Shown here: positions 4,255-56,388 of the stretch, piece by piece
How the letters are laid out: each line of letters starts with the position of its first letter
Numbering within the stretch: position 1 is the stretch's first letter
DNA from: Naegleria gruberi
Lineage: Eukaryota
DNA length: 64,000 nt
NCBI GenBank assembly: GCA_000004985.1
Contig: GG738929.1
Direction: 5' to 3' (one strand)
The notes under the pieces: generated by a model
What the model was told of the DNA's origin: nothing
The model's database searches: none
The model's input: only the letters and a program-made list of their open reading frames with translations
Translations under genes and position numbers: made by a program

Positions 4255-4344
4255 ATAATAATACATTAATTATTTCTCTCAGTCAAATCCACAATCTTTC
4301 TTATAGTTATGATCTTCATCTTCTGTTGGATAAAAGTAAAAGCA

Positions 4345-4417
4345 ACTCCCCCTGGTGGGCTCGAACCACCGACCTGCAGATTAACAGTCTGACGCTCTAC
4401 CGACTGAGCTAAGGGGG
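4345..4417 (-). tRNA. tRNA-Asn (anticodon GUU)
   Basis: The 73-nt cloverleaf has a 7-bp acceptor stem (TCCCCCT/AGGGGGA) and a D-arm GCTC/GAGC. The anticodon loop CTGTTAA carries U33 and A37. The T-arm is GGTGG-TTCGAGC-CCACC. There is no intron. Confidence 0.85.
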
Positions 4418-4532
4418 ATTACATGTACTAAGAATGGTTTCCACTAATATACAGACAAACGTCACTTTAATCAAATTTGTTAAATTTATTGTGGGAACAT
4501 TTACTGAACTCTGATTACAAAATTGAAAAAAA

Positions 4533-4994: not shown

Positions 4995-5040
4995 AAGGTG
5001 GCAACGAGAAAAATTGCTAGTGATTGGGTATTTAAAAACA

Positions 5041-14000: not shown

Positions 14001-14663
14001 CATTATTGGATATCCAATCTTATTTGCACATTTCAAAGCTTCTGATTCAGAAGTGATACAACACTTTAAATAAATGTCTTCAGGAATTGGTAAACCACTC
14101 TTTGTAATATCGTAGTGAACCTCGGAACCAGACCATGGAATACAAGGAACACCAGCTGCTTGAGCCAAAATTGTGGAAGAAATCTTGTCTCCCAAAGCTT
14201 CCATTGGTACACTGTCTGGACCAATAAAAGCAATTTGTCGTTTAGTTTGTGAAAGTGAAAATGGAAGTTCTGGATTTTCACTAGCGTGTCCCCAACCTGG
14301 CCAAACTGCATCACAACAAAATTGTTCAGCAATATCTACTATTAATTTAACATTGCTGTAATTGTTATAATTCGATTCACCTGGTACTTTGACTAATTCA
14401 TCAGCCAATCTAACATATTCGGCATTGGCTTGGATATCTTCAGGTGTAGCCATTACTACGAATTTAATTTCATCTGATTTACCAAAAACTTCATTACACC
14501 ATTTTCTCATTGAACGAATTCCTTTAACTGCGGCAATACCATTGTTTGCTATCAGTATCTTTTTGATTATCTTGTTGCCACCCATAAAACTAACATATTC
14601 TTCTACACTTGCGAAAATGCCATGATTAGATTGTGTAGGAATAACTGGACTATCTGTTTCCAT
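8007..14663 (-). CDS. ACC1: Acetyl-CoA carboxylase (single exon, 2,218 aa). It carries biotin carboxylase, BCCP and carboxyltransferase domains.
   Basis: The ATG lies at 14663 (METDSPVI). The translation shows the biotin carboxylase N-terminus, ATP-grasp motifs, the biotinylation motif EVMKM and the carboxyltransferase domain with good conservation along its full length. The ORFs on the opposite strand inside this span are artefacts. Confidence 0.95.
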   Translation of the reverse strand: METDSPVIPTQSNHGIFASVEEYVSFMGGNKIIKKILIANNGIAAVKGIRSMRKWCNEVFGKSDEIKFVVMATPEDIQANAEYVRLADELVKVPGESNYNNYSNVKLIVDIAEQFCCDAVWPGWGHASENPELPFSLSQTKRQIAFIGPDSVPMEALGDKISSTILAQAAGVPCIPWSGSEVHYDITKSGLPIPEDIYLKCCITSESEALKCANKIGYPIMIKASEGGGGKGIRKVANDIELKLGFSQVKNEVPGSPIFLMKLSSESRHLEVQVVADKHGNALALYSRDCSVQRRHQKIIEEGPVTVAPKHVIDKMEAAAVTLARSVNYSGAGTVEYLYEPATEHVYFLELNPRLQVEHPVTEWITLTNIPSIQLQIAMGISLNRIPDIRRFFGVQLKDLYTVEPQIDVNDAARRQPPVGHVIACRVTAENPESGFQPTCGSVVELNFRTNPNVWGYFSIRSQGAIHAFSDSQFGHIFTKGETREEARKTMLSTLSELAIRGEIRTTAEYLQSLLKFDDYVNNNYTTSWLDNLISKKIKLEKPDTLLVVTCGAVHTLHRMVSERAKNWILAVERGQVPSFDNVDVHYSIELIYENIKYQVDGVRSGPNKYTLALNGSTIEAELSELRDSGLLIVVDNGSHVSYASEEPSGLKLTLDGKVCMFTKEFDPSQLRSTLSGKFMKYLVENGAHVKPNTPVAELEVMKMIVTVYAPLPGRVNHCLVDGTGVNQGDIIAIIDLDDKSQVKRSLPFEGQFPPAAKVNARLPPNRVVSSALETVQNLLAGYDYPAFIFNDKLSETMLSLRKLGDRNVIIHEMIEKLSVLRKFLPVSLVREVNNLLQKRKIEYDEYCCKDDNDHTQDVYNEDLVKEITSIFKNFESGLEGAKKEEFLIAAKPVFELLELFNNGYKQHAFSTLAKLLEEYIQTEKIFDTTGGKRREAVWFELRQKHSENLNKTYQIGLSHFRLSSKNKVIRSLLEIIEELDMVKESTPLLDELASFVAPEFSDVAVAAKHILTSSRLPSKQRMKDEMEGYFKDGLEAVDNQQKLACLKELIVKSNYSFDILLEFFSDPDERIANLAAEVYIRKAYCTFDIDISRVTSQPKFKTVEFSFMNTEKSTSGSLKSDGIVGSISMDCLSSLSETEDNIGFGVLAIFDSVSDIDAHLPDVMKIFENNDDADNTNVLKILLRAHGPTPNDVELLPSLTNLLKKHSESLQYNEIKRVTVVVEVQDKLPFYFTFRQRFNYDEDPMYRHIEPTLAFQLFLKKLSNYNITPYPCKDPSVHVFYGQKKKELGLNRYDFLNKRFFVRTLVLQGDIFTEENPEELQISELERYVVASINALEIAMADKNYPTSYANHIFVNFLPEVVVKADMVGEIIERFQKVYGKRLWKLRVSEVEVRFTAKFSRTSQPQTFRFIALDDTGYNLTLDVYREEKDQTTGRTVYKTVVGEKKPLEGLDVNIPHPILQAVDQKRVLAHNNDTSYVYDFPYLFERVVRSMWKEHNDLTKEDIPSTFISLTEYILDTTGKFLIENPVKNAIGKNTCGMVVWKVTLFTPEAKDGRDMILIANDITYQSGSFGVIEDEVFQLASEMARKLKIPRFYIAANSGARIGLADEVRELFKIEWNEPNDSTKGFKYLYLTPNDYEKLQKTNSVNAVEIEVNGEKRWKIIDIIGKENGIGVENLRGSGMIAGETSRAYEEVFTMNYIAARSVGIGAYVNRLGQRIIQNRKAPILLTGAGALNKVLSREVYTSNLQLGGIQIMNPNGVTHLIAKDDYLAIKDALKWLSYVPKSVGSALPILKTLDDPERQIQYLPVEGSHYDFREMLVGKTVEGENGESTWLSGFFDKNSFFETLTGWAKNIIVARARLGGIPMGVIAVDTKTYEQIIPADPADSNSRERVVQKSGQVWYPDSAFKTAQAINDFNKGEQLPLMIFANWRGFSGGQRDMFDEILKFGSYIVDALTNYKQPVFVYIPPNGELRGGAWVVVDPMINNDVMEMFADDKSKGGILEASGIVEIKYRKQEIVATIQRLDAEYINLAKELGRSDISLKEKDEIKVKMGKRVEKLIPIYTQVAECFADLHDTPGRMKAKGVITEIISWKTARTYFYWRLKRKILEFNLLKELSECVDAQSNKLSIKREILRQKVINNEQVWTNDREFLSWIEDNKETVTQAIATLRGEKVKQDILSLCSSGNLGSVCDGLLSFLENNSDAVGESLKEKLRKLL

Positions 14664-18560: not shown

Positions 18561-18697
18561 ATTATTTCGGAATATAATTTATAAACAGGGCAATTACAAT
18601 TTTAAAATTCATAATTAATATTTAATTTTATTGTTTTTTGTATTATTATTTGCCGCCTTTTTGTTGTATTTTTAAAACAGAAAAAACTACAAAAAAA

Positions 18698-19810
18698 ATG
18701 GCAGAAGATCTTGAAAAGTTACCAAATGGTAGAATTACAAATGATTACCTCAGAAAGTTGTGTAAAAGCAAGGGTGGATACATGACCGAACACTTAAATG
18801 ATAAACTCTACCTACAACATAAGGGTGTGTCAAAAATTGAAAATTTGGAAAAGTTTACCGGAGTGAAGGTTCTTTGGTTGGAATCCAATGCTATTCATGA
18901 AATTCAAGGATTGGAGGAAAATAAGGAAATCTCTTGTTTATATCTTCATGAAAATTGTATTGAGGAAATTAAAGGAATTTTCCATTGCACAAAGCTTCAT
19001 ACACTGAATTTGTCTTCAAACTTTATTACACATATTCCGGAAGAGTTGGGACTGAACTGTACAAATATTCAAACATTGGATTTGAGCACAAATGCATTGA
19101 AAACAATTGATTCTGTGAGAGGTCTTCGTTATTTAACATCATTGAACATTTTAGATCTGAGTAAAAACAAATTGTTTGAGGAGTTGACCAATGGAATGGA
19201 CTATGAGCAAACAATTGAGGAATTTTTAACTATTCTCAAATCAATCAAGGATTTAAGATTATTGAGACTGGAGGGAAATGAAATGCTTAAGAAGATTCCT
19301 AATTATAGAAAGAAGATCATTGGAAGTTTACCAAGTTTGACCTATCTGGATAGTATGCCAATTTTTGATGATGAAAGAAGAACAGTGACTGCTTGGATGA
19401 AAGGAGGCCTTGATGCTGAAAGAGAGGAACGAAAGATAATGGCTCAAGAAAAGAAAGATAAAGAGAGAAGAAATTTTGAAGCATTTGAACAATTAATCCA
19501 ACAATCAAAGAAGGAAGAAAAGGAGAAGGAATCAAAAATTGAGAGGGAACAAGTCGAAAAGAAGGTTGAAGAACAAAAAGAAGAGGAGGAATTAGAAATA
19601 ATTGAAGATGTTCCTATCCGACACATGTCATGCCAGATTGAAGAGTTAGTTCTTGAGGATATCACAAACGAGGAAGACACACAAGAAACAAAACAAGATT
19701 TAATTTCGAGCCCTCAAAATTTGGCAACCCAAGAGGTCTCTAAGGCTCAAGAAATAGTGGTGAACATGTCTGAAGAGACTGTTGGTGACAGCTTATTTGA
19801 TATTGAGTAA
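18698..19810 (+). CDS. DNAAF1: DNAAF1/LRRC50 (ODA7)-like leucine-rich-repeat dynein axonemal assembly factor
   Basis: YLRKLCKSKGGYMTEHLNDKLYLQHKGVSKIENLEKFTGVKVLWLESN...IPNYRKKIIGSLPSLTYLD...AWMKGGLDAEREERK follows DNAAF1 along the N-terminal cap, the LRRs and the LRRcap region. The ATG is at 18698. Confidence 0.8.
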   Translation: MAEDLEKLPNGRITNDYLRKLCKSKGGYMTEHLNDKLYLQHKGVSKIENLEKFTGVKVLWLESNAIHEIQGLEENKEISCLYLHENCIEEIKGIFHCTKLHTLNLSSNFITHIPEELGLNCTNIQTLDLSTNALKTIDSVRGLRYLTSLNILDLSKNKLFEELTNGMDYEQTIEEFLTILKSIKDLRLLRLEGNEMLKKIPNYRKKIIGSLPSLTYLDSMPIFDDERRTVTAWMKGGLDAEREERKIMAQEKKDKERRNFEAFEQLIQQSKKEEKEKESKIEREQVEKKVEEQKEEEELEIIEDVPIRHMSCQIEELVLEDITNEEDTQETKQDLISSPQNLATQEVSKAQEIVVNMSEETVGDSLFDIE

Positions 19811-22074: not shown

Positions 22075-23837
22075 ATGTTGTCATCAAAGGTAACTAAAAA
22101 GTACGAACCTATTGTTCCAAAACCTCTCTTTTATGGTTCATTGGTTGTAACAATTGGTATTGTGATTGTATTGCTAAATCATGCCTATAACTTGTCTCGG
22201 GATTTTATTACATCAGGACAGGCGATCTATCCAATGAGAGTTGACAAAGGATGGTTTATGGATTTTGAACAGGTTTGTTTCAGTTTGATTATTCGGATAA
22301 TAATAATGGATTTAGGATTTAACAGATCCACAATGGAGAAGTTTCAGACAGTTTATTCCTTTATTATTAATTGGAGCAACTGTATATGTAATACTTTCTA
22401 GAATTATCAGACATTTATTATTCCCAAATGTTTGTATTTTAATTATATTATTTAATAATTTTATTAATTTGAATTAATTAGAATTATAAGGCTACTCTGA
22501 TTTATTACTTGCTATTTTCTGCAGGATTTATTTATTTCCTTTATGGAAATTGTGTAATATTTCTTATTGGAATTACTCTTGTAAATTATTTAATTGGAAA
22601 GATTTTCAAATCAAGTAAGCTAAATACTATTGTATCTTGGCTTTTCAATTTGACAATTTTATTTACTAGTAAGCGATATAATGGATACTATTTCCAGGAC
22701 TTCTTTTTACCTGGTTCTCTAGAACAAAATAGAGGAGTTCTCGATTGGGAAACCTATTTTAATATCTTATTTTGTAGATTAATTAGTTATAATATGGATT
22801 ATTCAGAACAATTATCAAGGGTCCCATCTGATTCAATCAATGCTACTAAAAAGGAAGATGAACAATGGTCAGAATATAGACAACGTCAGGAAACATCTTT
22901 GAATATCGAGGCTGATTTCAATTTACTCCATTATTTGGCCTACATTTTCTATACACCACTCTTTATTGGTGGTCCTGTTTGCAGTTATACTGCTTTCATT
23001 TCTTATGTAAAATATTCCACCCAAAAAGAACTCTCATATGGTCAATTAATATGGCACACTATTAGACTTGTCGCTTATATTATTTTATTAGAGATTTACC
23101 TTCACTTGTTCTACACTGTTGGTTTCAATGATGTAGGATTCTGGAAAGAGGGACTCTGGAGAGGAAAATTCACTCGAGTTCTCCCTCCTTTTTCAGTTGG
23201 TGTCATTGGTATTACTACTCTAACATTTATGTATATGAAATTCTTGATTATTTGGAGAATGTTCAGATTGTGGGCTCTTTGGGACGGAATCAATCCTCCT
23301 GAGAATATGAATAGATGTGTGAATAATAATTACCTTGTTTCAGATTTTTGGAGATCTTGGCATAGATCTCTCTATATGTGGATTTTACGTTATCTTTACA
23401 TACCACTTGGAGGAAGCAAATCAAAGGTTTGGAGTGTTTGGATTATTTTCACTTTTATTGCATTGTGGCATGATCTTTGGTGGAGATGGCTTGCTTGGGC
23501 ATGGATTAATTGTTGTTTATTGATTTTGGAAGCTGTCTTTTTCTATGCTATTCTTCCAAGAATGTCATGGATTGAAAAATTGAGACAAAGAAGCAAGTAT
23601 ACATTTGCTTTCTTGTGTGGATTTTCTGGAGCTATCAGTATTATTACCCTTATTATTGCAAATCTTGCCATTATGCATGGTTTTGCTGATACTCCACTTT
23701 TCATTCATCAACTCTTCTTACAACCAGGTGGTTTTGTTTACTTTTTGACAATCTTATTTGCACTTCCTTTTGTTGTAATGGTCATGATTCATAAGAGAGA
23801 TATGGAAAGAATGGCTGGTGATGAAAAGAAGTTTTAA
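22075..23837 (+). CDS. Membrane-bound O-acyltransferase (MBOAT), GUP1/HHAT-like. Exons are 22075..22275, 22352..22429 and 22482..23837.
   Basis: The conserved MBOAT block reads FWRSWHRSLYMWILRYLYIPLGG...ALWHDLWW, and includes the invariant His. Two predicted introns (GTTTGT donors, CAG and TTAG acceptors) join three hydrophobic exons in frame. Confidence 0.68.
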
Positions 23838-30152: not shown

Positions 30153-33100
30153 TTATTTTTCCAAGATGGTTTTCACAACATTTCTAATTTGTGTTTGAGA
30201 TATTGGTTTTAGACACACAAGATCCATTCCTGCACGTTTGCACAAGCTTTCTCCATCACTATCTCCAGTCGCACCAATTAAAATACAAGAAGTAGCAGGT
30301 TTCTTTTCTGCTTCAAATAGTCTTATTTTTTCGGCACATTCCAATCCTGACATTACATCCATGTGTACATCAAGAACAATGGCATCAAATTTGTTAGGGG
30401 TATCAAAATTCTCAATATAAGCATCAAGAGCCTCTTTACCATTTGAAACACCCTTAGTTTCAATCATGAGCTTGTGTGGTTCATTCTTGACCTGCGAGAG
30501 ATGATTTTCTAGCTCACTATTTCCAGTAAGACCACCAAATATCTTGAGCATAATATTCTTATTAATAACATTATCATCAGCTACAAGTATTCTTAATTTA
30601 AGTTGTTTCTCTGATGGTCCACTATCAGATGATCCTGAGGGAGACGATTGGGGTGATGTTTCAGATGTTTGCGGATCTTTGGAAATTGCTGGCAAGTTTG
30701 GCTCTGAAATTAATGCCTTCTTAGGGAATTGGAATTTTTCAAAATCATTCTTCTCCGTGCTTGAAAAGGAAACAGTGGAATTCTTCATTGTTAATATTTG
30801 TTGAATCATATATTGGAAAGAAAAAAGTGTTACAGGTTTTCTAATTGATAAATCAAACATAGACTTGTTGGATTTAGGAAGATTTGTATCCTTTTTGATA
30901 AAACTTAGGAATCTTTTAGGTTCAAATCTATCAAACCATACAATTAATTTAGGTTGGATGACTTGATTATTTGTAGCAAATTTAGCATTATGTGACTCTA
31001 TTAATACTTTCAGTTTAGAAATGGTTGAATGAATTCTTTCAATCTCTACTGGAGAATAAATAAGAGTACTATTTCTTCTACCAGCATTGTTTGATTGATT
31101 TGCAGCCTTAGATTCAGCATTATGGGAGGAAACATGAGCTGCAGTGAAAAGAGCATTCTCGCTCTTTGGTAGATTGTCAGGAAGGAAACAAGCGTCATCC
31201 AAAATAATGAAAGAAATAGGTTTCTTAACTAACCAATCATTAGGATTAGATGATGATCTGTGCAAGAACTCCTCAGTGAATTGCTCTATCTTGTCAGCAT
31301 TTACAAATACGTTTTCAATATTTTCCATTGTTGCAACCTTTTCATCAAACACTTCTCTTAAATAATTGGAGAGGATGTTTCTCACTTTTGATTCTTTGTA
31401 AAGTACGAGACAAATATTGTTGCCATAATTTTTGGAAAGCTTTTCCTTTACCTCCATAATCTTACTTTCATCTGTAAGAGGTAATCTCTTATCAGCTCTG
31501 TCAATAATCTTGTCATAGTCCTCTCCTCTTGCAGCCTTTTGAAAAACAACTGTAAACCAGAAATTACTTCCACTGGAACCATTACTCTTACAACCAATGT
31601 CACCATTCATGAGGGTTGTAAGGTTTTTACAAATACTGAGACCAAGACCACTTCCTTCATACTCCTTATCCTTTTTCAATCTTGAAAATACTTTGAAAAG
31701 ATCTTTTTGTTTTTCTTGAGGAATACCGATACCAGTATCACAAACTACTACAAATACTTTCACTGTGGTTTCAGTTTCTTCTGGAACATCAACCAAGACA
31801 GAAACCGATCCTGTATGAGTAAACTTGATAGCATTACCCATCAAGTTTGTTAGAATTTGTTGGAATTTGTGAACGTCACCTCTAACAACCAATGGTACTC
31901 TATGTTTAGATCCACGTTTTACATCAATTTCAAGTGCTACATCAATTCCCTTCTTAAAGGCAGTAACACTGTTAATAGAAATAATTTCTTCAACAGAATA
32001 TTGTAAATCAAAGTTTGAAACATCAAGCTCAACACTTCCAGATTCTAATTTTGATGATGAAAGAACGTCTTGAATAATATTACTCAAAATATGGCAACTG
32101 GATAAAATCATATTCATCCATTCTAGACCTTCATGAGAATCTACTGTTTGTTGATGAACAAAGTCTTCATGCATCTTTTGGGCAATTAAATAAATCGAGT
32201 TCAAAGGATTCTTCAAATCGTGAGAAATCATACTAAAGAAAGTTGTTCTACTTTGAAGTTCTATTTGTGCTTCTCTGGCTTTTTCATTCATTAATTTAAC
32301 TTGATCATTAAGTTCATTATTTCTGATGATGAACACATCAACTTTCTTAGAACTCAAAAAATCTACTTTGTGTGTGACCTCTACACCAAATCTATCACCA
32401 ATCTTGGTTCTTGCCTTACATAGAGTCCACTTATCTGTTGCAATGACTGGAGGTCCAACAAGCAAATCCAAAATATTTTTAGAAGCATGTATTATTTCAT
32501 CATGTTCATATCCAAACATTCTTTCAAAAGCAAGATTAACATAGATAATCTTCTTTTTCCTTCTACTCTGTATGATTATTGCTTCGTTTGTAATGTTTAG
32601 CATGTTAGATAATCTTGTTTCAACTTCTCTGATTTGAGACCTAAATGCCTGATGCATATTATTAAGAATGAGAATTGCAACTACAAAGGGTATCGATATA
32701 AATAATATATCACAAAAGTAATCTCCATAATTTAAAGACAATCCTGGCATTAATGATTCTAACCATCCAAATTGTATGAAGGCTAGAATATATCCAATAA
32801 GAGCAACAATGGCAGTTTTGATGCTCGAAAGTCCAATAGCTGCAAAAATTGTTGGGAAAATTACGAGTCTCATGTTAGAAGCGAGAATTAGATGATTGTA
32901 AAGAGTTGTTTGATTTTGTTCAAAAATTAGAAGTGAAAGGATGGAGTTAGTATCAATGGAAGATGAAGCAAGATTAATTAGTATGAAAGGAACGGTGAGA
33001 AGGTAGAAAAGGAAAACGTAGAGGTAGGCATGTGGGAAGGGTGAACGAAAAAGGATGAATCCAACTAATGAAAATGTAGCATCTAGAATGTACAGCAGTG

Positions 33101-33739
33101 AAAGTGTTTTAAATCTGATTAGTTGTTGTATGATCACTATAATTTAATAGAAACATTGATGATCATTTATGAATAATTTATGAATAGGGTAAATGAATGA
33201 ATATTCAATAATAAAATTTCGTACATACTTGATATGCTGAAGAAGAGATGGAAAACAAAATACACTGAATAGTAAGCTATTGATAATCTCTCGTATGGGT
33301 CCTTAATGCTATTATGTGCTCGCAAACCAGGGAAGTTTACAAACCTATATCCCATCAGAAATGATGATGATTTACTAAACAGATGCGAAATAAATCTACG
33401 GAAACGGGATCTTGGTTTTGTATCTGGTTCCTCTTCCTCATCATCATCATAATCACGGTCTCTCTCTTCCTGTTGATTATTTGGTTCGAGAGAAGGCTGA
33501 ATAGCTATTGTTGTTTGGTTATTCCCCACATCATTTATAACTGTAGAAGGCTCGGATAAGTTTTGTTGTTGTTGTGTATTAGAAAGAGGTGTTGTTGTTG
33601 TTGTTGGTATATTAACTTTGTGTTCAACATTCCTACCAAGTAAATTTGTCGTCGTCGTCGTAGAAGGAGGAGTTGTAGTAATAGTTCCTTCCACCACTAT
33701 CGATGGTGATAACGGTTCGTTATTATTGGTAGAAGGCAT
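30153..33739 (-). CDS. Hybrid sensor histidine kinase (multi-TM N-terminal region, HisKA, HATPase_c, C-terminal receiver). Exons are 33328..33739 and 30153..33136.
   Basis: The H-box reads FFSMISHDLKNPLNSI, with N/G1/G2 boxes (LMGNAIKFT, CDTGIGIP, GSGLGLSICK) and a REC domain (ILVADDNVINKNIML...DAIVLDVHM). The track ORF starts on GTG, directly after a TTATAG acceptor. The upstream ORF with a real ATG at 33739 ends at a donor (CCT G|GTTTGC) and joins in frame, giving a 191-nt intron. Confidence 0.78.
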
Positions 33740-43641: not shown

Positions 43642-46600
43642 TTATTGAGCTTCAACTTGACCGCCTAAACATTTAATCAAATAATCAATCATTGAGAAAC
43701 TACTCATTTCTTCTACTAGAAGATTTGAATTCAATTCCTTCAATCGATTTGTTGCTTGTTTCAAATGAATAACAGATTCAGAATATTTGCTTGAATCTTT
43801 CTTTCCGCTTTGGAGTGTTTCTTTTGCCCATTGAGAAAGAGGATACATTCCATCATCACTCTTATCATTCTCAGTAACATTAGAAAGGAAATTGTCAAAT
43901 GATGTTTCTTCTACTTTACCATAGAGATTAGGATAATTTGTCTTTAAGTGATTTAGTAACTCTTCGTGAGTTGGTGGATTAGTATTGCAAATGTGAATAA
44001 TTTCCAAATCAAATAATTTGAATCGAGTGGAATTGACAATGATTTTGCTTACAAAGTCAACATTCACCAAGTTTCTAACAATTTCTAAATTTGGAGTACT
44101 GTTAGTTCTCTTAATTGATTTTAACATTCTTTCCAATAGAAAACCTTTTGGCATTTCACCTGTTTCATTTCCAATAATTAAACCAGGTCTCACAATCAAT
44201 ATTGGTAATCCCAAAATGTCTTTGGCTTGTTTCAACAAACACTCGGATGCAAATTTCGTTTGAGGATATCCGAATGTGAGATTCATTTCTGATAGTGTTG
44301 AAATCCTCTCTATTGGTTGACCTGAATCCTTATCCAAAGGTGCAGCAGATATTGAACTAACATATAGCAATGGCTTGACCCTACTCTGAAATGAAAACTC
44401 AATCATTCGTCTTGTTCCATCAACATTCGATTCTTTCAAAGATGAAAATGGTTGAATAAAATTCACAACAGAACCACCATGATAGACAACATCAACATTC
44501 CGAGCCAATTCATCATAGGTTGCTCTGTCCATTCCAAATAAATCCAAGCCAACATCTCCAACAAGTACTTGAACTCTGCTAATATATTCATTCTTCCAAA
44601 GTGAATACTTTTTCATGTTATCTATTAATCTCTTAGTTGCATGATCAATACTATTACCTCTACAAATACAATAGACCATTTTCAATTCTTGTAATTCTAA
44701 TAAATCTCTTAATAGGAAGGCACCCAGAAATCCAGTAGATCCAGTTAAGAGAACTTGTTCATGAATGAGTGGTTGACTGGAAGAAATACTTTGTGGAAGG
44801 GATTCCTTTGATTTTTCCAAATATTTCATTATTTCTTCATTGACAACAGGTGTTAATAATTCAGATTGATTGATTGCCTCAATGAGTTTCTTTGGAGTGT
44901 TCATCTTGTATACTTCATCAACACTCAGTTGAACATTGAATTCATTCTTGATATAATTTCTTAATTTGATCAATGAAATTGAATCTAATCCAATATTAGT
45001 AAGTGATGTATTCAGTTCAATTGCATTTTCCTCGTTTATAAATATTTGCTTATTCATAAATTCGAGAAATTGTGAAGGTTCTGCAATTTTAGAAGCTTTC
45101 TTACTTGATTGAGGTTTCTTTACCATAATATTTTCATTCTCATTAGCAGAGGATGAAACATTGTAAAGTGAATCAATAATATTCTTGAATACTTGTTCAG
45201 TTTTAGATCTAGAAACAAGTCCTTTCAAACTACTGGTTGGAATACTATCATTGGTTAGCAATATAAAATCCACAATTCTAGAATGGAATGGAAGTCTATT
45301 ATTCATTTCAATAATTTGCTCACTAATCTTTTCCTTAATATTATTAGGTTTCTTTTTAGGATCAATTTCAATCAATGCCACACAGAAAGGTCTATTATGA
45401 CCAATGACAGCACTTCTAACAACGGATCCATCAAATGAATCAATTTCATTCTCAATTGGTACTGGATTAGTCATTTCACCATTAGTATGACAAAGAATAT
45501 TATCAGATCGGGTATTATAGAAATAGTGATCTTTAGGATACTCAAAAAATAAATCATGAGTACAGAATATACCATCTACCCAAAACTTTGTATTATTAAT
45601 GGACATGTAATCCAATGCACATGTTGGGCAACCCTTCTTTAGATTCAATAAATAACACTTTTCCATTTCATAAGGTTGCCAAACAATGTACTTTTCTGGA
45701 ATGACACATTTCATTGATTTGAATGCGCCAGTGAACGGATCAGCTGCCATTACAACACCTACCTCACTCATTCCATATCCATTTGTTATGTTAATTCTAT
45801 GATCTTGGCAATAATTGATGAGATGATTTGGAGTAGAAACTCCACCAAGAGCCACAACCAGACATTCAGATAATAGTTTAGTCTTTTCCTCTGATTCCAT
45901 TATTTCTTCCAATAAAATTGGAAATACAATGGCTCTAGTGGATGGTAAATGTTCCTTATGGCTCAACAATACCTGACTGAGTGTTTGAGAAATACTTTGT
46001 CTAGTTGTCTGATTAAACATTATATAATTAGTACCCTTGTAGAGACAACCCAACAAGTTATATAATCCCATTAAGTGAAATAATGGTAGAAAGTTGATAA
46101 CATATTGTTGACTTGTCGTTCCAATGGATTGTGAATAGTGAAGACTTGACATTAGTGATCTCATATTGTGAATTACTATTTTAGGAATATTAGTACTACC
46201 TGAAGTGTTCAAATAAAAGCATGGATCTTCAAATTTGAATGGTAATTTCAGTGCTTGTTTCAAATCTTCATCACTGATTGTAGTATCTAATTGATCTTTG
46301 ATAGCTGAAATAATGTCGAATGGTTTCAGATAGGAAGAATATTCATGTTTCTCATAATCTTTCAATTGTTGTGAAATGTCTGATGTGATCATGTATTTAT
46401 CGGCTGTTTTAAAGAATGTATCCATACTCTCCTTATCACTTGCTTTAATCATTGAATCTAGAATCTGGGGAGATAAACTAACATATTTCACATTTCCCAA
46501 TTCGAGTAGTTTTGAAATAATTCCAGGAGTCAATTTGTTATTGACTGGAAAATTAATACAACCCAAAGTCCATAATGCAAACAGTAATACAGAGTAGACT

Positions 46601-46902
46601 ATTGAGTTTTCATGTAACAAAGCAACGCAAGAACCTTTCTTTAAACTTGGCCATTGCTTCATGATTAATCTTCTGGCCATTGCAACTGATTTGGAAAATT
46701 GACCAAATGTTAAGGTTGATATTTCCAATTTGTAATCTAATGGTAATTCACCATCTGTGATCACTCTTGTGAGGAAAGTTGATTGAGAATTGTTCAAACC
46801 ATAATGTTCTACAAGTTCCAATAAGTTAAAGAATGGTTTCCTATTTAAAGGCCATTCAACTTGAATTCCTTCGTGGTCTATAATTTCTGTTGACTGACTC
46901 AT
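43642..46902 (-). CDS. NRPS-like adenylation–thiolation–reductase enzyme (A-PCP-R). It is either a carboxylic acid reductase or an alpha-aminoadipate reductase of the Lys2 class.
   Basis: The AMP-binding core motifs are LNTSGSTNIPK (A3) and GYGMSEVG (A8 region). The phosphopantetheine attachment site reads NIGLDSISLIKL. The thioester-reductase NAD(P) fold reads VLLTGSTGFLGAFLL. It is a single exon with an ATG at 46902. Confidence 0.85.
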   Translation of the reverse strand: MSQSTEIIDHEGIQVEWPLNRKPFFNLLELVEHYGLNNSQSTFLTRVITDGELPLDYKLEISTLTFGQFSKSVAMARRLIMKQWPSLKKGSCVALLHENSIVYSVLLFALWTLGCINFPVNNKLTPGIISKLLELGNVKYVSLSPQILDSMIKASDKESMDTFFKTADKYMITSDISQQLKDYEKHEYSSYLKPFDIISAIKDQLDTTISDEDLKQALKLPFKFEDPCFYLNTSGSTNIPKIVIHNMRSLMSSLHYSQSIGTTSQQYVINFLPLFHLMGLYNLLGCLYKGTNYIMFNQTTRQSISQTLSQVLLSHKEHLPSTRAIVFPILLEEIMESEEKTKLLSECLVVALGGVSTPNHLINYCQDHRINITNGYGMSEVGVVMAADPFTGAFKSMKCVIPEKYIVWQPYEMEKCYLLNLKKGCPTCALDYMSINNTKFWVDGIFCTHDLFFEYPKDHYFYNTRSDNILCHTNGEMTNPVPIENEIDSFDGSVVRSAVIGHNRPFCVALIEIDPKKKPNNIKEKISEQIIEMNNRLPFHSRIVDFILLTNDSIPTSSLKGLVSRSKTEQVFKNIIDSLYNVSSSANENENIMVKKPQSSKKASKIAEPSQFLEFMNKQIFINEENAIELNTSLTNIGLDSISLIKLRNYIKNEFNVQLSVDEVYKMNTPKKLIEAINQSELLTPVVNEEIMKYLEKSKESLPQSISSSQPLIHEQVLLTGSTGFLGAFLLRDLLELQELKMVYCICRGNSIDHATKRLIDNMKKYSLWKNEYISRVQVLVGDVGLDLFGMDRATYDELARNVDVVYHGGSVVNFIQPFSSLKESNVDGTRRMIEFSFQSRVKPLLYVSSISAAPLDKDSGQPIERISTLSEMNLTFGYPQTKFASECLLKQAKDILGLPILIVRPGLIIGNETGEMPKGFLLERMLKSIKRTNSTPNLEIVRNLVNVDFVSKIIVNSTRFKLFDLEIIHICNTNPPTHEELLNHLKTNYPNLYGKVEETSFDNFLSNVTENDKSDDGMYPLSQWAKETLQSGKKDSSKYSESVIHLKQATNRLKELNSNLLVEEMSSFSMIDYLIKCLGGQVEAQ

Positions 46903-47096
46903 GAATTGTTTTTCTATGATATTATTTCTATCAAAAATAACTCGTGGAGTTTATATTTCTGATATTACAAATTTAGAAATAAACCTTTCTGAGGTTAAAT
47001 AAATTAAGGGATTTGAACAATTGAAGGAAATGTGCGTAGTGATTCTTACAGTTGTAGATGGAATGGATATCATTTAAAATATTTACAATATTTGAT

Positions 47097-47944
47097 TTAA
47101 GGTTCATAGGACATGAGTTCTTCCTTGTCATCTTTTGACATTTTCTCGACAGCATATCTAAGACCTTCTCTACTGAAATGTGAATAATTTTCCTTAATAA
47201 AATCAGTTACCAAATCCAAATCAGCTAAACTCAATTCTCTCAGCACCCATCCAGTTCCAAGTTGTGCAAATCTTTCACTATTCTTCACTGTTGTACTACA
47301 AATATCAATAATCAAGTCGTTATATTCTCCATGCTTGGCAATCTTTACAAAACTAACACAAGCACTTCGTTGTTTCCACAAATTATCGGAATCTTTCCAC
47401 TTTTGAACAACTTGTGCCAAACTTGAATCTCTTTTAATGAGCTCACAAATTACAGTTGAGCTAATAGTATCACAAGTTGCCCAATCATAAACATGTTCCT
47501 TATCAAATAAATTCTCCTCAATTCCATTCACAACATATAATCCATTGACTCCAATTTCATCATCTTCAGTTGATTTCTTCTTCTTTTTTGGTACAAAGTT
47601 TTTAACATTTGATGCCAATATCTAATTCATTATTATATATTCCAAATTAAATACTCAGTTATCAAATAAAAACCAACCTTGATTCCAATAGATTTCTCTT
47701 CAAAATATTTACTTGCTATTAATTCATAACTAACATCCACCTGATCCTTCAATTCTGGTATATTTGTTTGTAAATTACTTTTCAGAGTATCTTTCCAACA
47801 TTTTTCAACAATCGGAGCCTTCAATCCATGAAATTTAATAACATTCTTCATGTAGCCTTCTTGGTGTTTAGCAGAGTCCTTGTTGGCTACTTTTAATAGT
47901 GTTGTTCGGACGAGTTTTGTAAAATTCATACGTTTGACTTCCAT
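47097..47944 (-). CDS. AlkD-like DNA alkylation repair protein (HEAT-like repeat glycosylase family). Exons are 47678..47944 and 47097..47622.
   Basis: YMKNVIKFHGLKAPIVEK and WATCDTISSTVICELI...SDNLWKQRSACVSFVKIAKHGEY...TGWVLRELS match the AlkD/AlkC family. A 55-nt intron (AAG|GTTGGT ... AATTAG) joins the two track ORFs. Confidence 0.65.
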
Positions 47945-48332: not shown

Positions 48333-50081
48333 ATGTTTTTTGATAATGATACTCTATTTGTCATTTTCCATTACATGACTCCGTGGAATTTATTATTTAC
48401 AACCAGTAGAGTTTCTAAACAATGGAAATATGTTTCCTCACTCATTCCGATCCATTTAAAATTTAATCAATTTAATACTTTTCATCAAATCATGATGATG
48501 AAATTTATTACTACTCATCATCTAATTGATGATCATCAGATGAATGAAAATAATTCTTTTAAAATTGTGGAATTAAATTTAATGAACATGTATATTAAAA
48601 AGGAAAATATTCATTTATTATATGAACACATTAATGTATTGAAATGTTCATTAACGAGTTTGAGTTTACCAAGACTTTTACCGAGAGATGTTTTGGAGAA
48701 AATTTCAGAAATTGAAATGGAACACTTGACACAATTAATGATTGATGGATGTGAAATGAATTTAGATTGTACATTATTTTGTAAATTTAAATTAAAACAA
48801 TTGAGATTAACAGAGATTATAACAGTGGAAGCATTTTCTGCTCTTGCAAAAAATGAAAATTTGTACAATTTAACAAGTTTAGACTTGTCTATTTCTCAAT
48901 CTACCGTTGAAAGCATTGAAATATTGAGTAATAGTTTAATATTTAGTAATTTAACATGTTTAATTATGGAGCATAATCATATAGATGATGAAATGGTTAA
49001 AATTCTAACAAAATGTAAATATTTATCAAAAATAAGGAAATTGAATTTATTTGCAAATGATATTGGAAATGTTGGACTACTCCACATATCATCTTGTGAA
49101 TATTTGAGGCAATTAAATCATTTAGATTTGAGGAGAAATTCATTTACTGATATTGGAATCGGCTATTTGAGTAATAGTTCAAATATGCAAAATTTAGAAT
49201 ATTTGGATTTGAGTAGAAATGTATTGAGTGGTGATAGTGCTATATTATTATCAAATAGTCAATATTTAACAAATATTAAATCAATTAATCTAACTTCTAA
49301 TAGTTTAGGATATTCATGCGTTAAGGAAATTTCTAAATTTAAACAATTGGAAGAATTGAAATTATGTAATAATGATCTCAACCAAGAATCCATGGAAATT
49401 ATTTCCAAATCCTTCACAAAATTGAAAGTTTTAGATTTGAGTGATAATCCAATTATGGAAGGTGCTTCGCATCTTCAAAATTTACCAAATTCCAATTTAA
49501 TTCATTTAGATCTATCGCTTTGTAAACTTCCAATCAAATGTATTGTTGATTTATCAATGAGTGATTCTATATTGAATGTAAAGAAGCTATATTTGGGATT
49601 TAATCAAATTGGAGATGAAGGTGTCATGTTAATTTCGTCTAGTCTTTACAATCTCACTCATTTGTTTCTTCCATTTTCGAATATTACATCAAGAGGTGTA
49701 AAATATTTATGTGATGGAGTGTTGGATAGAATTGAATTGTTGGATTTGGCAAATAACATGATAGGAAATGAAGGATTGACCTACATTTCACAATGTAATA
49801 ATTTTTCCTATTTGGAATATCTATATTTGGATATTAATATTTTAATAAGTGATTTGAGTGAATTATTGTTTGTGAATGGAAATTTACAAAATTTAAAACA
49901 TATTTCAGCTAGAAAATGTATGATTGTTAAATTAATTGAGAAATCTGATGAAAATATTTCTTTGCCATTATTGGAATTTCTCGATATTTCAAAGAATAAG
50001 TTTGAGAAGAGTGAACTTTCTAAATTAATGAAGAAAACTTCAATTCTGCCTTGTACTCTTTCTCTAGTCATTTTGTATTAA
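48333..50081 (+). CDS. F-box / RNI-like leucine-rich-repeat protein
   Basis: An N-terminal F-box-like motif (LFVIFHYMTPWNLLFTTSRVSKQWKYV) is followed by about 20 LRRs of the L..LDL..N.I type. The ATG is at 48333. Confidence 0.7.
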   Translation: MFFDNDTLFVIFHYMTPWNLLFTTSRVSKQWKYVSSLIPIHLKFNQFNTFHQIMMMKFITTHHLIDDHQMNENNSFKIVELNLMNMYIKKENIHLLYEHINVLKCSLTSLSLPRLLPRDVLEKISEIEMEHLTQLMIDGCEMNLDCTLFCKFKLKQLRLTEIITVEAFSALAKNENLYNLTSLDLSISQSTVESIEILSNSLIFSNLTCLIMEHNHIDDEMVKILTKCKYLSKIRKLNLFANDIGNVGLLHISSCEYLRQLNHLDLRRNSFTDIGIGYLSNSSNMQNLEYLDLSRNVLSGDSAILLSNSQYLTNIKSINLTSNSLGYSCVKEISKFKQLEELKLCNNDLNQESMEIISKSFTKLKVLDLSDNPIMEGASHLQNLPNSNLIHLDLSLCKLPIKCIVDLSMSDSILNVKKLYLGFNQIGDEGVMLISSSLYNLTHLFLPFSNITSRGVKYLCDGVLDRIELLDLANNMIGNEGLTYISQCNNFSYLEYLYLDINILISDLSELLFVNGNLQNLKHISARKCMIVKLIEKSDENISLPLLEFLDISKNKFEKSELSKLMKKTSILPCTLSLVILY

Positions 50082-50327: not shown

Positions 50328-52301
50328 TTAAATGCAATATCTTTTCACAAGGGATGAATCAATTTCAACCTTGAATAATATTTTGAAGAGAAAGCTGTGA
50401 GTAATTCTTTCATCGTTAACAAAGTGTATTGATGAATGATTACACAACAATGCACTAATGCAGAACATGAAATCTTCCTTAAGGAATGGAGATGCATCAG
50501 AAAATGCATACTCATAGGAGAGTATGGCAGCCTTGACAATGTCAGGATTACTTTTCAATCTTGGAGAGGCAAATTTGAGTGCCATTCCACTATTCTTACA
50601 TGCCGTCATGATTACTTCAAAATCATCACACAGTGGAGGGTCTGCATATTGTAATGTGTATGGATAATGTTTCACAGCATGAAGTAGCAACTCTCTGTCA
50701 GTAATTGTACTTGGATATTTGTTGAAAAAGTCGGCACTCTTTTCAACAGATGACCAAATCAATTCCTTGTCGGCTCTTAGACTTTCTGGAATGACATCCA
50801 GGTGATCGGTTCCATATTTTTTAACAATCATCATAATTAGCTCTCTATCATTTCTAAAGGATGAATCAAGGAACTTGAATAGGCATGGATTATTCTCCAC
50901 AATTTCAAAAATTAAATTTCTATCCAATTTCAACTCTGGAGTTAAAAACTTGTAGGCATTTGGTGAATATTTAAGAACCTTTTTTAGGAAATCCAAGTCC
51001 TTGACTAATTCAGGGTTCAGAAACTTTGTTCCTTCATTTGGTTTGTATTTTATGTATGCCAACAATACTTCCTTGTCGTTTCTGATATGTTTAGGCAATT
51101 TCTTATATTCTATAGCATTAAAAACTTGCATGACAACTTCTTTATCATTCCACAAATCCTCAGAGAGTTCATAAATAGAAACTTCAAATTCTGGTACCAT
51201 TTTAAGTATTAATGATCTATTACTGGATATTCTTCTTTCTATTTCATCAAAGACATGTCTTGGGTGCGATGATAAGTGAGCTCTTATTACTTCTTCATCA
51301 TCCCACAGTTGATGATCTGTAACTTGGCTTAGAATAAAATCATGATCTGATGAATCTGAAACCCGTAGACAACTCAGCAAAATTTCTCTATCATTGAAGC
51401 ATGATTTTTCTAAATAATAAATAGATGACCCATTTCTGGCTATGAGTGTTTTAGCTACCTGTTTGTAGTGTGGATATTCTAGTGGAAGACAAGATAAAGA
51501 TAAGTTTTTTTCCATGGCAACTTGAACTAGTTCATCAAAAAATGGCAGGTCAACTGGAACATATTTAAGATGATTACTATTTCCAGAGATTGCTTTCAAT
51601 AAAATATCATAATCCAGGGCATGTTTGGTATTTTTGATATGACCATAAGGATGGTTCTCCAACACGATCAATAACAAATCCTTTCTTTCACATATCAAAT
51701 CACTAGGAAGATAAGAAAGTGATATTCCACTCTTCACACACTCCTCAATAATGTCCAAATCTAGTGATTTGTAAACACCTGCTTTTAAGTAATTCAACTT
51801 TCCATGTTGTGCCAATTCCAAAACAATTTCCTTATTATCCTTAATTTCTGGATAAAATATGCCAACATTCAGTCCGTTGGACAAACAAGCTGCGATTCTA
51901 ATATCAATGTCTCTTTTCAATTCATTTGGAAGATAATCGAAAATATAACCATAAACACTGAGAGCTAACAGGGCAATATCCTTTCTCGTTTTTAAATGTT
52001 CGGGTATTTTGGAATAATTGAACCCATCCGATTCAATTGCTAGTTTGACAATTGTTTCATCATTTTTCAATCTTTCAGAAATAAATTCAAATCCACTAAA
52101 ATACTTTTTTGAACATGCCATTAATACAATTTCTCTGTCATCTCTCAATCTTTCAGAACAGAATTGAAACGCCAATGGTGCATGTTTAATGGCCAACTCG
52201 ACCACTTGTCTATCATCTTTCCAATGACTTGGAGCATATTTCAATACGTATGCGTTATGGGATACTAGCAATTTAATGACATGTTTGTAGTAATTGACCA
52301 T
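50328..52301 (-). CDS. DUF4116-like repeat protein (about 25 tandem repeats of roughly 26 aa). A possible upstream exon lies at 52366..52542.
   Basis: The repeat unit is of the form KNDREIVLAAVKQNG.AL.YA. The ATG is at 52301. An upstream ORF with a real ATG at 52542 could splice in through a GTATGG donor and a TTGCTAG acceptor (64-nt intron). This is unverified. Confidence 0.6.
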   Translation of the reverse strand: MVNYYKHVIKLLVSHNAYVLKYAPSHWKDDRQVVELAIKHAPLAFQFCSERLRDDREIVLMACSKKYFSGFEFISERLKNDETIVKLAIESDGFNYSKIPEHLKTRKDIALLALSVYGYIFDYLPNELKRDIDIRIAACLSNGLNVGIFYPEIKDNKEIVLELAQHGKLNYLKAGVYKSLDLDIIEECVKSGISLSYLPSDLICERKDLLLIVLENHPYGHIKNTKHALDYDILLKAISGNSNHLKYVPVDLPFFDELVQVAMEKNLSLSCLPLEYPHYKQVAKTLIARNGSSIYYLEKSCFNDREILLSCLRVSDSSDHDFILSQVTDHQLWDDEEVIRAHLSSHPRHVFDEIERRISSNRSLILKMVPEFEVSIYELSEDLWNDKEVVMQVFNAIEYKKLPKHIRNDKEVLLAYIKYKPNEGTKFLNPELVKDLDFLKKVLKYSPNAYKFLTPELKLDRNLIFEIVENNPCLFKFLDSSFRNDRELIMMIVKKYGTDHLDVIPESLRADKELIWSSVEKSADFFNKYPSTITDRELLLHAVKHYPYTLQYADPPLCDDFEVIMTACKNSGMALKFASPRLKSNPDIVKAAILSYEYAFSDASPFLKEDFMFCISALLCNHSSIHFVNDERITHSFLFKILFKVEIDSSLVKRYCI

Positions 52302-54414: not shown

Positions 54415-56388
54415 ATGTACTCACTGCACCAACACACTACTCAAGATGAATGTAATGATCATTCACATTCTGATACCTTCTTCGATGATAATAGTACTAT
54501 TGAGTCATTGCTCAATGATGATTTGTTTTCACACCTTGCTGGCAATACTCAAGCACCATCAGAGAGTGGAGTTTCTAATTCTTGTCATGATTTTGAAGAT
54601 GATAACGATGATAATGAACGAGTTGACAATGAAGAAGAAAGTATGCCACCTTGTAAACACCTAACACCAGATGCAAAGAAGGAGAAGGAGGAATTTGTTG
54701 CTAGAAAATTAACAGAAGAGGAAATTCCAATGGAAAGAACAATATTTTGCAGTAATTGTACTTCATGCACTTCATGTGTCTGTCAGAAGAATAAGCTTCC
54801 CTGTACAGTTAAATGTGCATGTCAAATTAAATGTAAAAATTTGAGAAAAGAAGTACTAACTGATAATTGGATTCAACACAAAACCTTACCAGAAAGAAAT
54901 ATTGAAAGTCCACTAATAGTTGGTCCAATTAATGTGAAACAAGATTTATCCATAAAGGAATCATTTCAATTGATTTGGACACCTGATATTATAGAACACA
55001 TTTATGAGAGAACCAATAGAAAGTTTGAATATTGGCAAATTTACTCAGATGAGATTAAAATGTATAAACTTGCAATTAAAGACAAATCCAAAAAGAGAAA
55101 GAGAATGAACAATAACACTAATCCATCTGAATCCATTGAATTATGTTCAGATATCGAATATGATCAGCCAGTTAGAACTCCAAAAAAGATATTTCCTGAT
55201 TTTGATGAATATTTCACAAAATGTAAAACTGAAAACAAAATATTAGAAGAAAAGTTTTCAAGAAAGCAAATTACTAACTTTTTAAATATTTCTATATTGA
55301 TGAATACTACATGTAAAATTCCAAACATTTGCAATTATTGGACAATATCAGGACTTGATGCAGCCCTTTATGGAAATGGAATATTCAGATATTTAATGAG
55401 TAGATCAATGTTTAATCAAATCAAGCAGAATTTAACATGTGACTCTGATTTTTTGGAAATGAGAGTGAATGAGAATTCTAGAAAATTTTGGAAATGTTTC
55501 AAAGAAATTTCAGTGGATGAAATAATTGCTCCTTTCAAGGGAAAGATTAGTGACAAACAGTTTCTCCCCACCAAACCTCACAATTATGGATTGAAATATT
55601 ATACACTATCTGATTGGGTTGGGTATGTTTATGCATTTTGGTTGTCAAAACACGAACATAAATCAGATAAAATTGTTTTAGATCTTATTGAGCATATTGA
55701 TGATCCACAGAATCATATTTTAGGTGTCGACAATTATTATGGATCATTAAATTTAGCAAATCAATTATCAGAAAAAGAATGGAATTATGTCATGACAGTG
55801 AGGGCTAATAGACCAACATTTCTTTTCAGTGATGGATTGTTGAAACATCTCAAAAGAAGCAAAACTAAAAAGTGGACTCAAGCTGTCCATAAAAACAATC
55901 ACATGGCTGCTGTTTCTCTCAATGATCACAAAAAGGTTAATTTTTTAACTAATTTGGGAAGTAATCAAACATTTCATTCACAACCACTTGTTCAGAAATA
56001 TGAAAGAATGGGTTGTGTTGAATTGTCTGGAATCAATCTTTACAAAATGGATGTTCCCTTCGAGGTAAATAATTGGAAAATCATCCATCTCTTTGAAGTT
56101 CTACGTATAGCTCTCGTTAATCAATATTTAATTTATAAGCATGTTAGAAACTTAACTAATTTGACCCTCAATGAATATTTGCAAGAGGCAACATTATCTC
56201 ATTGTGAATCCACCAACCCAAATTTCAAAAGAACAATACATTTCCCATCCAGTGTCAAAACTCGTGGACTTTGTGAGCATTGTAAGAATTTTCATTCTCT
56301 CACTCCTATCAAATGTCCTGCTTGTAATTCCTACCTTCATCAAAAGTGTTTTGTAGATTTTCACCTTAAAAAACACATTTATTATTAA
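54415..56388 (+). CDS. piggyBac-transposase-derived protein (DDE_Tnp_1_7-like core, C-terminal Cys-rich zinc finger, extra N-terminal CxxC-rich region). It could be domesticated or the ORF of an element.
   Basis: The core blocks are WTPDIIEHIYERTN, IAPFKGKISDKQFLPTKPHNYGLKYY and GVDNYYGSLNLANQLSEKEWNYVMTVRANRPTF, matching the DNFFTS...GT.R.NR block. The C-terminus CEHCKNFHSLTPIKCPACNSYLHQKCF is a piggyBac-type CRD. The 657-aa ORF is intact. I did not verify TIRs or TTAA target sites. Confidence 0.7.
   Translation: MYSLHQHTTQDECNDHSHSDTFFDDNSTIESLLNDDLFSHLAGNTQAPSESGVSNSCHDFEDDNDDNERVDNEEESMPPCKHLTPDAKKEKEEFVARKLTEEEIPMERTIFCSNCTSCTSCVCQKNKLPCTVKCACQIKCKNLRKEVLTDNWIQHKTLPERNIESPLIVGPINVKQDLSIKESFQLIWTPDIIEHIYERTNRKFEYWQIYSDEIKMYKLAIKDKSKKRKRMNNNTNPSESIELCSDIEYDQPVRTPKKIFPDFDEYFTKCKTENKILEEKFSRKQITNFLNISILMNTTCKIPNICNYWTISGLDAALYGNGIFRYLMSRSMFNQIKQNLTCDSDFLEMRVNENSRKFWKCFKEISVDEIIAPFKGKISDKQFLPTKPHNYGLKYYTLSDWVGYVYAFWLSKHEHKSDKIVLDLIEHIDDPQNHILGVDNYYGSLNLANQLSEKEWNYVMTVRANRPTFLFSDGLLKHLKRSKTKKWTQAVHKNNHMAAVSLNDHKKVNFLTNLGSNQTFHSQPLVQKYERMGCVELSGINLYKMDVPFEVNNWKIIHLFEVLRIALVNQYLIYKHVRNLTNLTLNEYLQEATLSHCESTNPNFKRTIHFPSSVKTRGLCEHCKNFHSLTPIKCPACNSYLHQKCFVDFHLKKHIYY

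Follow-up and report, generated by a model that had tools for sequence, protein, structure and literature searches.

We have analysed a stretch of 64,000 nucleotides from the genome of Naegleria gruberi (assembly GCA_000004985.1, contig GG738929.1), referred to here as the window, and within it the gene NAEGRDRAFT_75808, which GenBank labels simply as a "predicted protein". The gene encodes an adenylation (A) domain, a carrier (T) domain and a thioester reductase (R) domain in that order, and its product is probably a functional, stand-alone enzyme of the carboxylic acid reductase (CAR) type, restricted to Naegleria and Willaertia and acting on a substrate other than an α-amino acid. An original prediction, made from the letters of the window alone, had framed the gene partly in terms of the fungal lysine pathway, a setting that does not apply as N. 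gruberi is a heterolobosean amoeboflagellate and not a fungus.

The coding sequence is complete and lies in a single exon at 43642..46902 on the minus strand, the strand of all the features of the gene given below. It forms an uninterrupted open reading frame (ORF) from the ATG to the stop codon (43642-43644) with 1086 codons ahead of the stop, and both the length of 1086 aa and the single exon had been read correctly in the original prediction. The orthologue in Naegleria fowleri is one continuous ORF too. At the base composition of the window (33% G+C, giving a stop probability of 0.0735 per codon), a run of 1086 stop-free codons has a chance expectation of ~1e-36. The encoded protein is 100% identical to the N. 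gruberi entry XP_002669289.1 (NAEGRDRAFT_75808, UniProt D2W337). The G+C content of the gene, 0.322, equals that of the window, 0.329, so that a recent foreign insertion is not suggested.

Four Pfam domains bear out the predicted A-T-R architecture. The A domain, of the ANL type, occupies aa 1-581 (45160..46902) and consists of AMP-binding (aa 62-387, 45742-46719) and AMP-binding_C_3 (aa 467-581, 45160-45504). The carrier domain, also termed T or peptidyl carrier protein, follows at aa 610-680 (44863..45075), with the PP-binding match at aa 625-677, and the R domain, of the SDR type, lies at aa 716-1058 (43729..44757), with NAD_binding_4 matching aa 719-955. The NCBIfam thioester-reductase model TIGR01746 matches aa 716-1058 with 233 bits and passes its cutoff of 213.35.

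All ten ANL core motifs are recognisable on inspection of the A domain. Direct reading placed the A3 or P-loop motif TSGSTNIPK at aa 233-241 (46180..46206), the A5 motif GYGMSE at aa 375-380 (45763..45780), and the A7 motif CTHDL (aa 447-451) together with the hinge and A8 segment RSDNILCHTNGEMTNPVPIE (aa 465-484) at 45451..45564. The A4 motif PLFHLMG, with His276 at 46075..46077, was located by motif anchoring, and the A10 catalytic lysine, Lys560 (45223..45225), was identified from the aligned segment in the motif P-x-T/S-x-x-K-G-x-V/I-S-R. In the T domain, the phosphopantetheine-attachment residue Ser641 falls in the sequence GLDS (44980-44991) within the PP-binding match. The R domain has the Rossmann motif TGSTGFLG at aa 720-727 (44722-44745), Ser849/850 (44353-44358) and the sequence YPQTK, which provides Tyr879 and Lys883 (44254-44268). 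These last residues match the Ser/Tyr/Lys catalytic set known from the structure of the Neurospora crassa CAR, NcCAR (PMC10168641).

Every conserved column in an alignment of 47 A-T-R proteins is kept in the Naegleria protein. In the A domain, E380, D450 and G475 are invariant in this alignment and R465 and E484 nearly so, as are S234, G235, P240 and K241 of the A3 motif; in the T and R domains G638, S641, T720, G721, G724, S849 and Y879 are invariant and K883 is nearly so. Lys560 is invariant in an alignment of heterolobosean and fungal A domains. The predicted fold is confident. An AlphaFold2 model calculated from the 47-sequence alignment has a mean pLDDT of 85.8, with values mostly above 85 in the A domain; this alignment was used in place of an input of two Naegleria sequences only, which gave a pLDDT of 33. 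In the model, a helix spanning residues 641-655 begins with Ser641. Foldseek comparisons of the A domain gave target TM-scores of 0.76-0.77 for MenE, benzoate-CoA ligase and 4-chlorobenzoyl-CoA ligase, 0.73-0.75 for acyl-ACP synthetase and 0.57 for the didomain of a CAR consisting of its A and carrier domains (5MSS), and comparison of the R domain gave 0.76-0.77 for MxaA.

The family to which the protein belongs is narrowly distributed. When 1.84 billion representative proteins were searched exhaustively with HMMER and a Naegleria profile, the full-length matches numbered just three: the N. gruberi protein itself, FDP41_010104 of N. fowleri (44-46% identity) and KAL9642249.1 of Willaertia magna (36-37% identity, 876 bits). 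Below the scores of these orthologues, the remaining matches cover the T-R part alone. The three proteins are collinear from the N-terminus (QVEWP, aa 14-18) to near the C-terminus and have a common start. We conclude that the family is restricted to the Naegleria and Willaertia lineage. One metagenomic fragment, P0010, which comprises 260 aa on a contig of 1213 bp in an ENA metagenome, scored 345 bits with the Naegleria profile over the end of the A domain, the T domain and the start of the R domain; it shows that the family has a further, unsampled natural relative, probably in another vahlkampfiid.

The original prediction had left the choice between a Lys2-type aminoadipate reductase and a CAR. 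The architecture, the motifs and the lineage of the A domain described below uphold the second of these, and comparison with Lys2 speaks against the first. The Lys2 equivalog model TIGR03443 (NCBIfam) scored 174.6 bits, far below its cutoff of 1030, and the Willaertia orthologue scored 175.5 bits. The single match stretch is confined to the T-R part (aa 595-1036 aligned to profile positions 835-1309), and no alignment of the A domain to this model was obtained at E ≤ 0.01. An N-terminal ADA domain of ~230-300 aa, truncated and condensation-like, has been described as critical for Lys2-type adenylation (Kalb et al. 2015, cited in PMC7884236). This domain is absent from the Naegleria protein: Pfam gives no Condensation match and AMP-binding begins at aa 62. 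Its absence accounts for the shortfall of ~300 aa with respect to Lys2 that had been pointed out originally, and which corresponds to 1086 aa as against the 1390 positions of the Lys2 profile. Nor could it be supplied by a further exon upstream. With 64 upstream codons read in frame, the nearest in-frame stop lies 17 codons from the ATG, and the intergenic region between the ATG and the stop codon of the next gene, with its in-frame stops, is 194 bp long (46903..47096), too little to accommodate a further exon for an N-terminal ADA domain.

No true Lys2 was found among the 150 best HMMER hits; P0033, P0120 and P0147, which are of Lys2-like length and were suspected of being Lys2, proved to be fragments of polyketide synthases (PKS). 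Judged from the model score, the missing ADA domain and the placement of the A domain elsewhere, NAEGRDRAFT_75808 is not a Lys2. Two A-T-R proteins of Suillus, P0116 and P0162 (1044-1085 aa), carry the GenBank label 'L-aminoadipate-semialdehyde dehydrogenase'. P0116 groups with the non-Lys2 family of proteins resembling non-ribosomal peptide synthetases (NRPS-like), and P0162 belongs to the 90%-identity cluster of P0116; the aminoadipate label is probably an annotation error in both, of the same kind as is risked for the Naegleria gene.

The affinities of the A domain were pursued separately. Taken alone, it is very divergent from the sequences in the PDB, with MenE as the top match at 2e-8. 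Among the generic NCBIfam models, the best scores were those of long-chain-fatty-acid-CoA ligase (85.6 bits) and MenE (81.2 bits), and the amino-acid adenylation model TIGR01733 gave 55 bits vs a cutoff of 317. Related A domains among the 150 best hits came from one group only, a pan-fungal set of A-T-R 'NRPS-like' proteins of ~1010-1160 aa found in Rhizopus, Blakeslea, Zychaea, Sporodiniella, Neoconidiobolus, the chytrid Thoreauomyces, Xylogone and Suillus. In BLASTP the best non-self matches were all fungal, and the A domain aligned to those of the fungal A-T-R proteins with 85-123 bits and 23-28% identity. When 70 A domains were placed in a neighbour-joining (NJ) tree, the three heterolobosean sequences fell together with 100% bootstrap and, along with the fungal NRPS-like A domains, a fungal A-T-thioesterase (A-T-TE) protein and the sequence P0083, formed one clan with 99% bootstrap, apart from bacterial A-T-R, acyl-CoA-synthetase-like and luciferase-like A domains. 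Derived motifs of the clan are GE(K/M)TNPxPIE in A8, KGx(I/V)xR in A10 and the loss of 'GY' from A6. The best solved-structure match of the fungal relatives is the R domain of the type III CAR of N. crassa, 8AEP, at 108-144 bits, which ties them to the fungal CAR or adenylate-forming reductase family. Word-indexed profile searches with the A domain returned almost only acyl-CoA-synthetase-like and luciferase-like proteins and one fungal A-T-TE protein, with no characterised fungal CAR among them. The phylogeny proposed as a check in the original prediction thus places the A domain with a fungal, non-Lys2 NRPS-like clan, in trees built from sequences other than characterised Lys2 and CAR proteins.

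A specificity code had been proposed as a further check, and part of it could be read. In amino-acid-activating A domains, Asp235 of PheA is the residue that binds the α-amino group, and A domains with neither Asp nor Glu at this position usually take aryl, keto, hydroxy or other non-amino acids (bioRxiv 10.1101/559534). The equivalent residue here is His276 when anchored on the FH/FD motif or Leu277 in a MAFFT alignment with PheA, and it is non-acidic in all three orthologues. Small or hydrophobic residues (Leu, Met, Ile, Val, Ala, Gly) fill the remaining alignable pocket positions, none of which carries a conserved charge. These assignments are approximate: the PheA reference gave nine of the ten residues of the expected DAWTIAAICK code at the numbered positions, Lys517 being misplaced by the alignment. 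The two readings of the code disagree, and so we have used only the non-acidic position 235 and the small, hydrophobic pocket and not the full code. The A domain belongs to an acyl- or aryl-activating lineage, with an FH rather than an FD motif. We predict with modest confidence that its substrate is a hydrophobic aryl or aliphatic carboxylic acid; α-aminoadipate or a proteinogenic amino acid would be unlikely.

The R domain has other affinities. Its top solved relative is MxaA (4U7W; 1.6e-46, 161.9 bits, aa 716-1014), and the R domain of NcCAR (8AEP) scores 49.8 bits. Over 300 aligned columns, identity to many bacterial NRPS and PKS terminal reductases is 32-35%, and that to the R domains of the fungal proteins related through their A domains is 23-26%, these ranking 138-146 of 147. 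NJ analysis of the R domain gave bootstraps of 100% for the heterolobosean group and 100% for the fungal group, and of 14% for the two joined. The TIGR01746 model scores the heterolobosean proteins at 220-233 bits and the fungal relatives at 170-207 bits, below the cutoff. In its similarities the protein is a mosaic of an A domain of fungal NRPS-like or CAR type and a terminal R domain of bacterial NRPS or PKS type. The R domain may have been exchanged for one of bacterial type or, equally, the fungal R domains may have diverged faster, and distance trees do not discriminate between the two. P0005, an uncharacterised protein of 916 aa from a Logan contig, branches in the R-domain NJ tree as sister to the heterolobosean sequences; its domain order is reversed, with the reductase N-terminal (aa 4-280) and AMP-binding plus AMP-binding_C_3 C-terminal.

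From these features a reaction sequence can be proposed. A carboxylic acid outside the canonical α-amino acids, most probably a hydrophobic aryl or aliphatic one, would be converted by the A domain to its acyl-adenylate at the expense of ATP. The acyl group would then pass to the phosphopantetheine arm on Ser641, which would be attached by a phosphopantetheinyl transferase (PPTase) presumably encoded elsewhere in the genome. Finally the R domain, through Ser849/850, Tyr879 and Lys883, would use NAD(P)H to release an aldehyde, possibly reducing it further to the alcohol.

Among known systems, the fungal CARs of types II-IV, such as NcCAR, are similar in being stand-alone A-T-R proteins of ~1050-1100 aa with AMP-binding_C_3, and in the A-domain clan with its 99% NJ bootstrap. 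The motifs HSSG(S/T)T..PK, P(L/M)(F/Y)H..G, NGE(K/M)TNPxPIE and KGx(I/V)xR followed by ..IxxxY are common to the fungal NRPS-like proteins and NAEGRDRAFT_75808. The Naegleria protein differs from the fungal CARs in the A-domain identity of just 23-28%, in an R domain that is not of fungal CAR type (8AEP at 49.8 bits vs 108-144 bits for the fungal proteins) and in its heterolobosean host, and few of the nearest fungal relatives have been characterised. The bacterial type I CARs of Nocardia iowensis, Mycobacterium marinum and Segniliparus rugosus have the same domain order and predicted chemistry. Their model, NF041592, is collinear with the protein over aa 57-933, and CARs in the PDB were matched at 1e-24 to 7e-34; however, the NF041592 score of 155.7 bits vs a cutoff of 1300 means that the protein is not an equivalog, and the bacterial A-T-R A domains sampled sit apart from that of Naegleria in the NJ tree. 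Lys2, a class I adenylate-forming reductase, has the A-T-R core in common and gives the partial T-R match of 175 bits, but the Naegleria protein is without ADA, is ~300 aa shorter and has an A domain to which the Lys2 model gives no alignment.

MxaA, the terminal reductase of the myxalamid PKS-NRPS, is the best match in both sequence and structure, and TGxTGFLG, GDL..P.LGL-like and YxxxK motifs are common to the two domains. Bacterial terminal R domains of this kind end multimodular assembly lines, whereas the Naegleria R domain is joined, in a eukaryotic protein, to an acyl-activating A-T unit that stands alone. The glycine betaine reductase ATRR (A-T-R1-R2), found in fungi, some protists and invertebrates, is also a eukaryotic NRPS-like reductase, with a place in primary metabolism and an A domain that does not have Asp235. 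It has a second, C-terminal YdfG-like SDR domain (bioRxiv 10.1101/559534), and ATRR was rejected as the identity of the Naegleria protein, which has only one R domain and stops after it, at aa 1086. Fatty acyl-AMP ligases (FAALs) have been reported in two Naegleria species in a survey. Here the spacing from E380 to D450 is 70 aa with no extra insertion, and no FAAL model was among the top NCBIfam hits.

Other explanations of the gene have to be weighed against a CAR-type enzyme. That R domain closest to bacterial NRPS and PKS terminal reductases (MxaA at 162 bits, 32-35% identity), with the fungal CAR R domain far weaker at 49.8 bits and the joint heterolobosean and fungal R grouping in 14% of bootstraps, would fit a protein that works in trans, loading or releasing chains for a Naegleria PKS or fatty-acid synthase with an R domain acquired from a bacterial NRPS or PKS. 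Type I PKS genes are indeed encoded by both Willaertia and N. gruberi (PMC7285305). Against this, with A and T domains of its own the protein would be self-sufficient in loading and reduction, neither N. gruberi nor N. fowleri has a PKS or NRPS gene in the vicinity, and the similarity of the R domain could equally stem from faster divergence on the fungal side, where TIGR01746 scores (170-207 bits) stay under the cutoff. We regard a role in trans as unlikely. A reductase of amino acids, comparable to the fungal type V or clade I enzymes LnaA, HqlA and BrsA and supplying amino aldehydes for pyrazine- or piperazine-type metabolites, has precedents among stand-alone fungal A-T-R proteins (PMC9605436), and the nearest A domains are fungal NRPS-like ones of mixed or unassigned specificity. 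However, H276/L277 leaves all three heterolobosean sequences with no acidic equivalent of Asp235, A domains with neither Asp nor Glu there usually take non-amino acids (bioRxiv 10.1101/559534), and the TIGR01733 score is 55 bits where 317 would be needed, all of which make an amino-acid reductase quite unlikely. A decaying gene or an artefact of the gene model is the least credible of the alternatives, and most improbable: the annotation says no more than 'predicted protein' and the A6 and A7 motifs are slightly atypical, but an ORF of 1086 codons is expected by chance at ~1e-36, and the protein is collinear in three species with all of its catalytic residues kept and a confident predicted fold.

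The lysine pathway deserves separate treatment. Euglenids, which like Naegleria belong to Discoba, use the aminoadipate pathway and, to our knowledge, lysine is not among the required components in the defined media published for N. fowleri. A non-canonical α-aminoadipate reductase could on these grounds stand in for Lys2 in lysine synthesis in Naegleria, with the same A-T-R arrangement as the Lys2 core and the T-R score of 175 bits with the Lys2 model in its favour. In addition, α-aminoadipate is activated non-canonically, so that the loss of Asp235 is not decisive alone (PMC7884236). Set against these points are the whole-protein score far below the Lys2 cutoff with the A domain unaligned to the model, the absence of the ADA domain reported as critical for Lys2-type adenylation, a hydrophobic pocket with no conserved charge to hold the zwitterionic end of aminoadipate, and an occurrence in Naegleria and Willaertia only, which is narrower than expected of a core amino-acid pathway in Discoba. 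An aminoadipate reductase is therefore very unlikely. We also consider improbable a true chimera, in which a fungal-type A-T unit joined to a bacterial assembly-line terminal reductase would serve a lineage-specific primary or signalling role, for instance as a non-orthologous α-aminoadipate reductase behind lysine prototrophy or in producing a fatty or aryl aldehyde or alcohol for encystment or membrane lipids.

Several points weigh against a CAR-type enzyme as the probable identity of NAEGRDRAFT_75808. The A7 motif is T-H-D, not T-G-D, and A6 is without the usual GY, and with these atypical motifs the adenylation chemistry may be reduced or altered. The trees are NJ trees on Kimura distances, not maximum-likelihood trees, and contain no characterised fungal CAR, Lys2 or ATRR sequences. 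At several pocket positions, motif anchoring and the MAFFT alignment with PheA differ by one residue. Identity to characterised enzymes is low (A ~25%, R 32-35%), which makes the prediction of the substrate weak. The window of 64 kb contains no PPTase, and in a literature search the locus tags and accessions of the gene and its orthologues were named in no paper.

No PPTase, lysine-pathway, PKS, NRPS or tailoring genes were found across the whole 64-kb window, and of the lysine pathway homocitrate synthase, Lys9, Lys1 and the Lys5 PPTase are all absent from it. The gene is thus stand-alone and not in a biosynthetic gene cluster, as had been suspected at the outset. A DNA-repair gene does lie next to it, again as first noted; this is an AlkD-like DNA-alkylation-repair gene (PF08713) at 47097-47944 on the minus strand, immediately upstream. 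It is found in two ORFs, 47633-47944 (profile positions 1-74) and 47097-47618 (profile positions 96-213), which implies a short intron or a frameshift between them. The N. fowleri orthologue has an RGS protein and a hybrid histidine kinase as neighbours, neither related to the genes around the N. gruberi one, and no gene for a PKS or NRPS was found near it. Hybrid histidine kinases (PAS-HisKA-HATPase-receiver) do occur ~10 kb or less from the A-T-R gene in both Naegleria species, at 30153-33137 on the minus strand in N. gruberi and at 1701-4742 on the minus strand of L001 in N. fowleri. Their 25% identity covers the kinase and receiver domains only, and we rejected them as synteny and regard them as a coincidence; there is no conserved neighbourhood between the two species.

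Elsewhere in the window, a eukaryotic-type acetyl-CoA carboxylase of 2218 aa is encoded in a single exon at 8007-14663 on the minus strand, 29 kb from the A-T-R gene, and an MBOAT acyltransferase at 22509-23837 on the plus strand, 20 kb from it. Both belong to lipid metabolism; they were considered as parts of a cluster and rejected, being distant and having unrelated genes between. An intact piggyBac-type DDE transposase ORF of 657 aa (54415-56388, plus strand; PF13843 DDE_Tnp_1_7, 1.6e-33) could be an active or a domesticated transposase. DUF4116-repeat proteins are encoded at 5014-6360 (plus strand) and 50328-52301 (minus strand), the latter with six repeats (7e-92), and leucine-rich-repeat proteins at 18638-19810 and 48333-50081. 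Both kinds look like members of expanded repeat-protein families.

Overall, NAEGRDRAFT_75808 is an ordinary, uncharacterised enzyme and not a new kind of system, and only in its mosaic affinity does it stand out a little. A-T-R enzymes of the CAR type have been described in bacteria and fungi and are prized as biocatalysts, and a divergent family confined to vahlkampfiids widens their phylogenetic range. The combination of a fungal-like A domain and a bacterial-like R domain would be a natural case of the domain recombination sought by enzyme engineers. For annotation, the gene is no evidence for an aminoadipate lysine pathway in Naegleria. We know of no A-T-R reductase of this type in humans, and N. 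fowleri has an orthologue; were the enzyme essential, it would make a selective drug target. Should the chimera with a lineage-specific role prove true, it would provide a parasite-specific target in this brain-eating amoeba.

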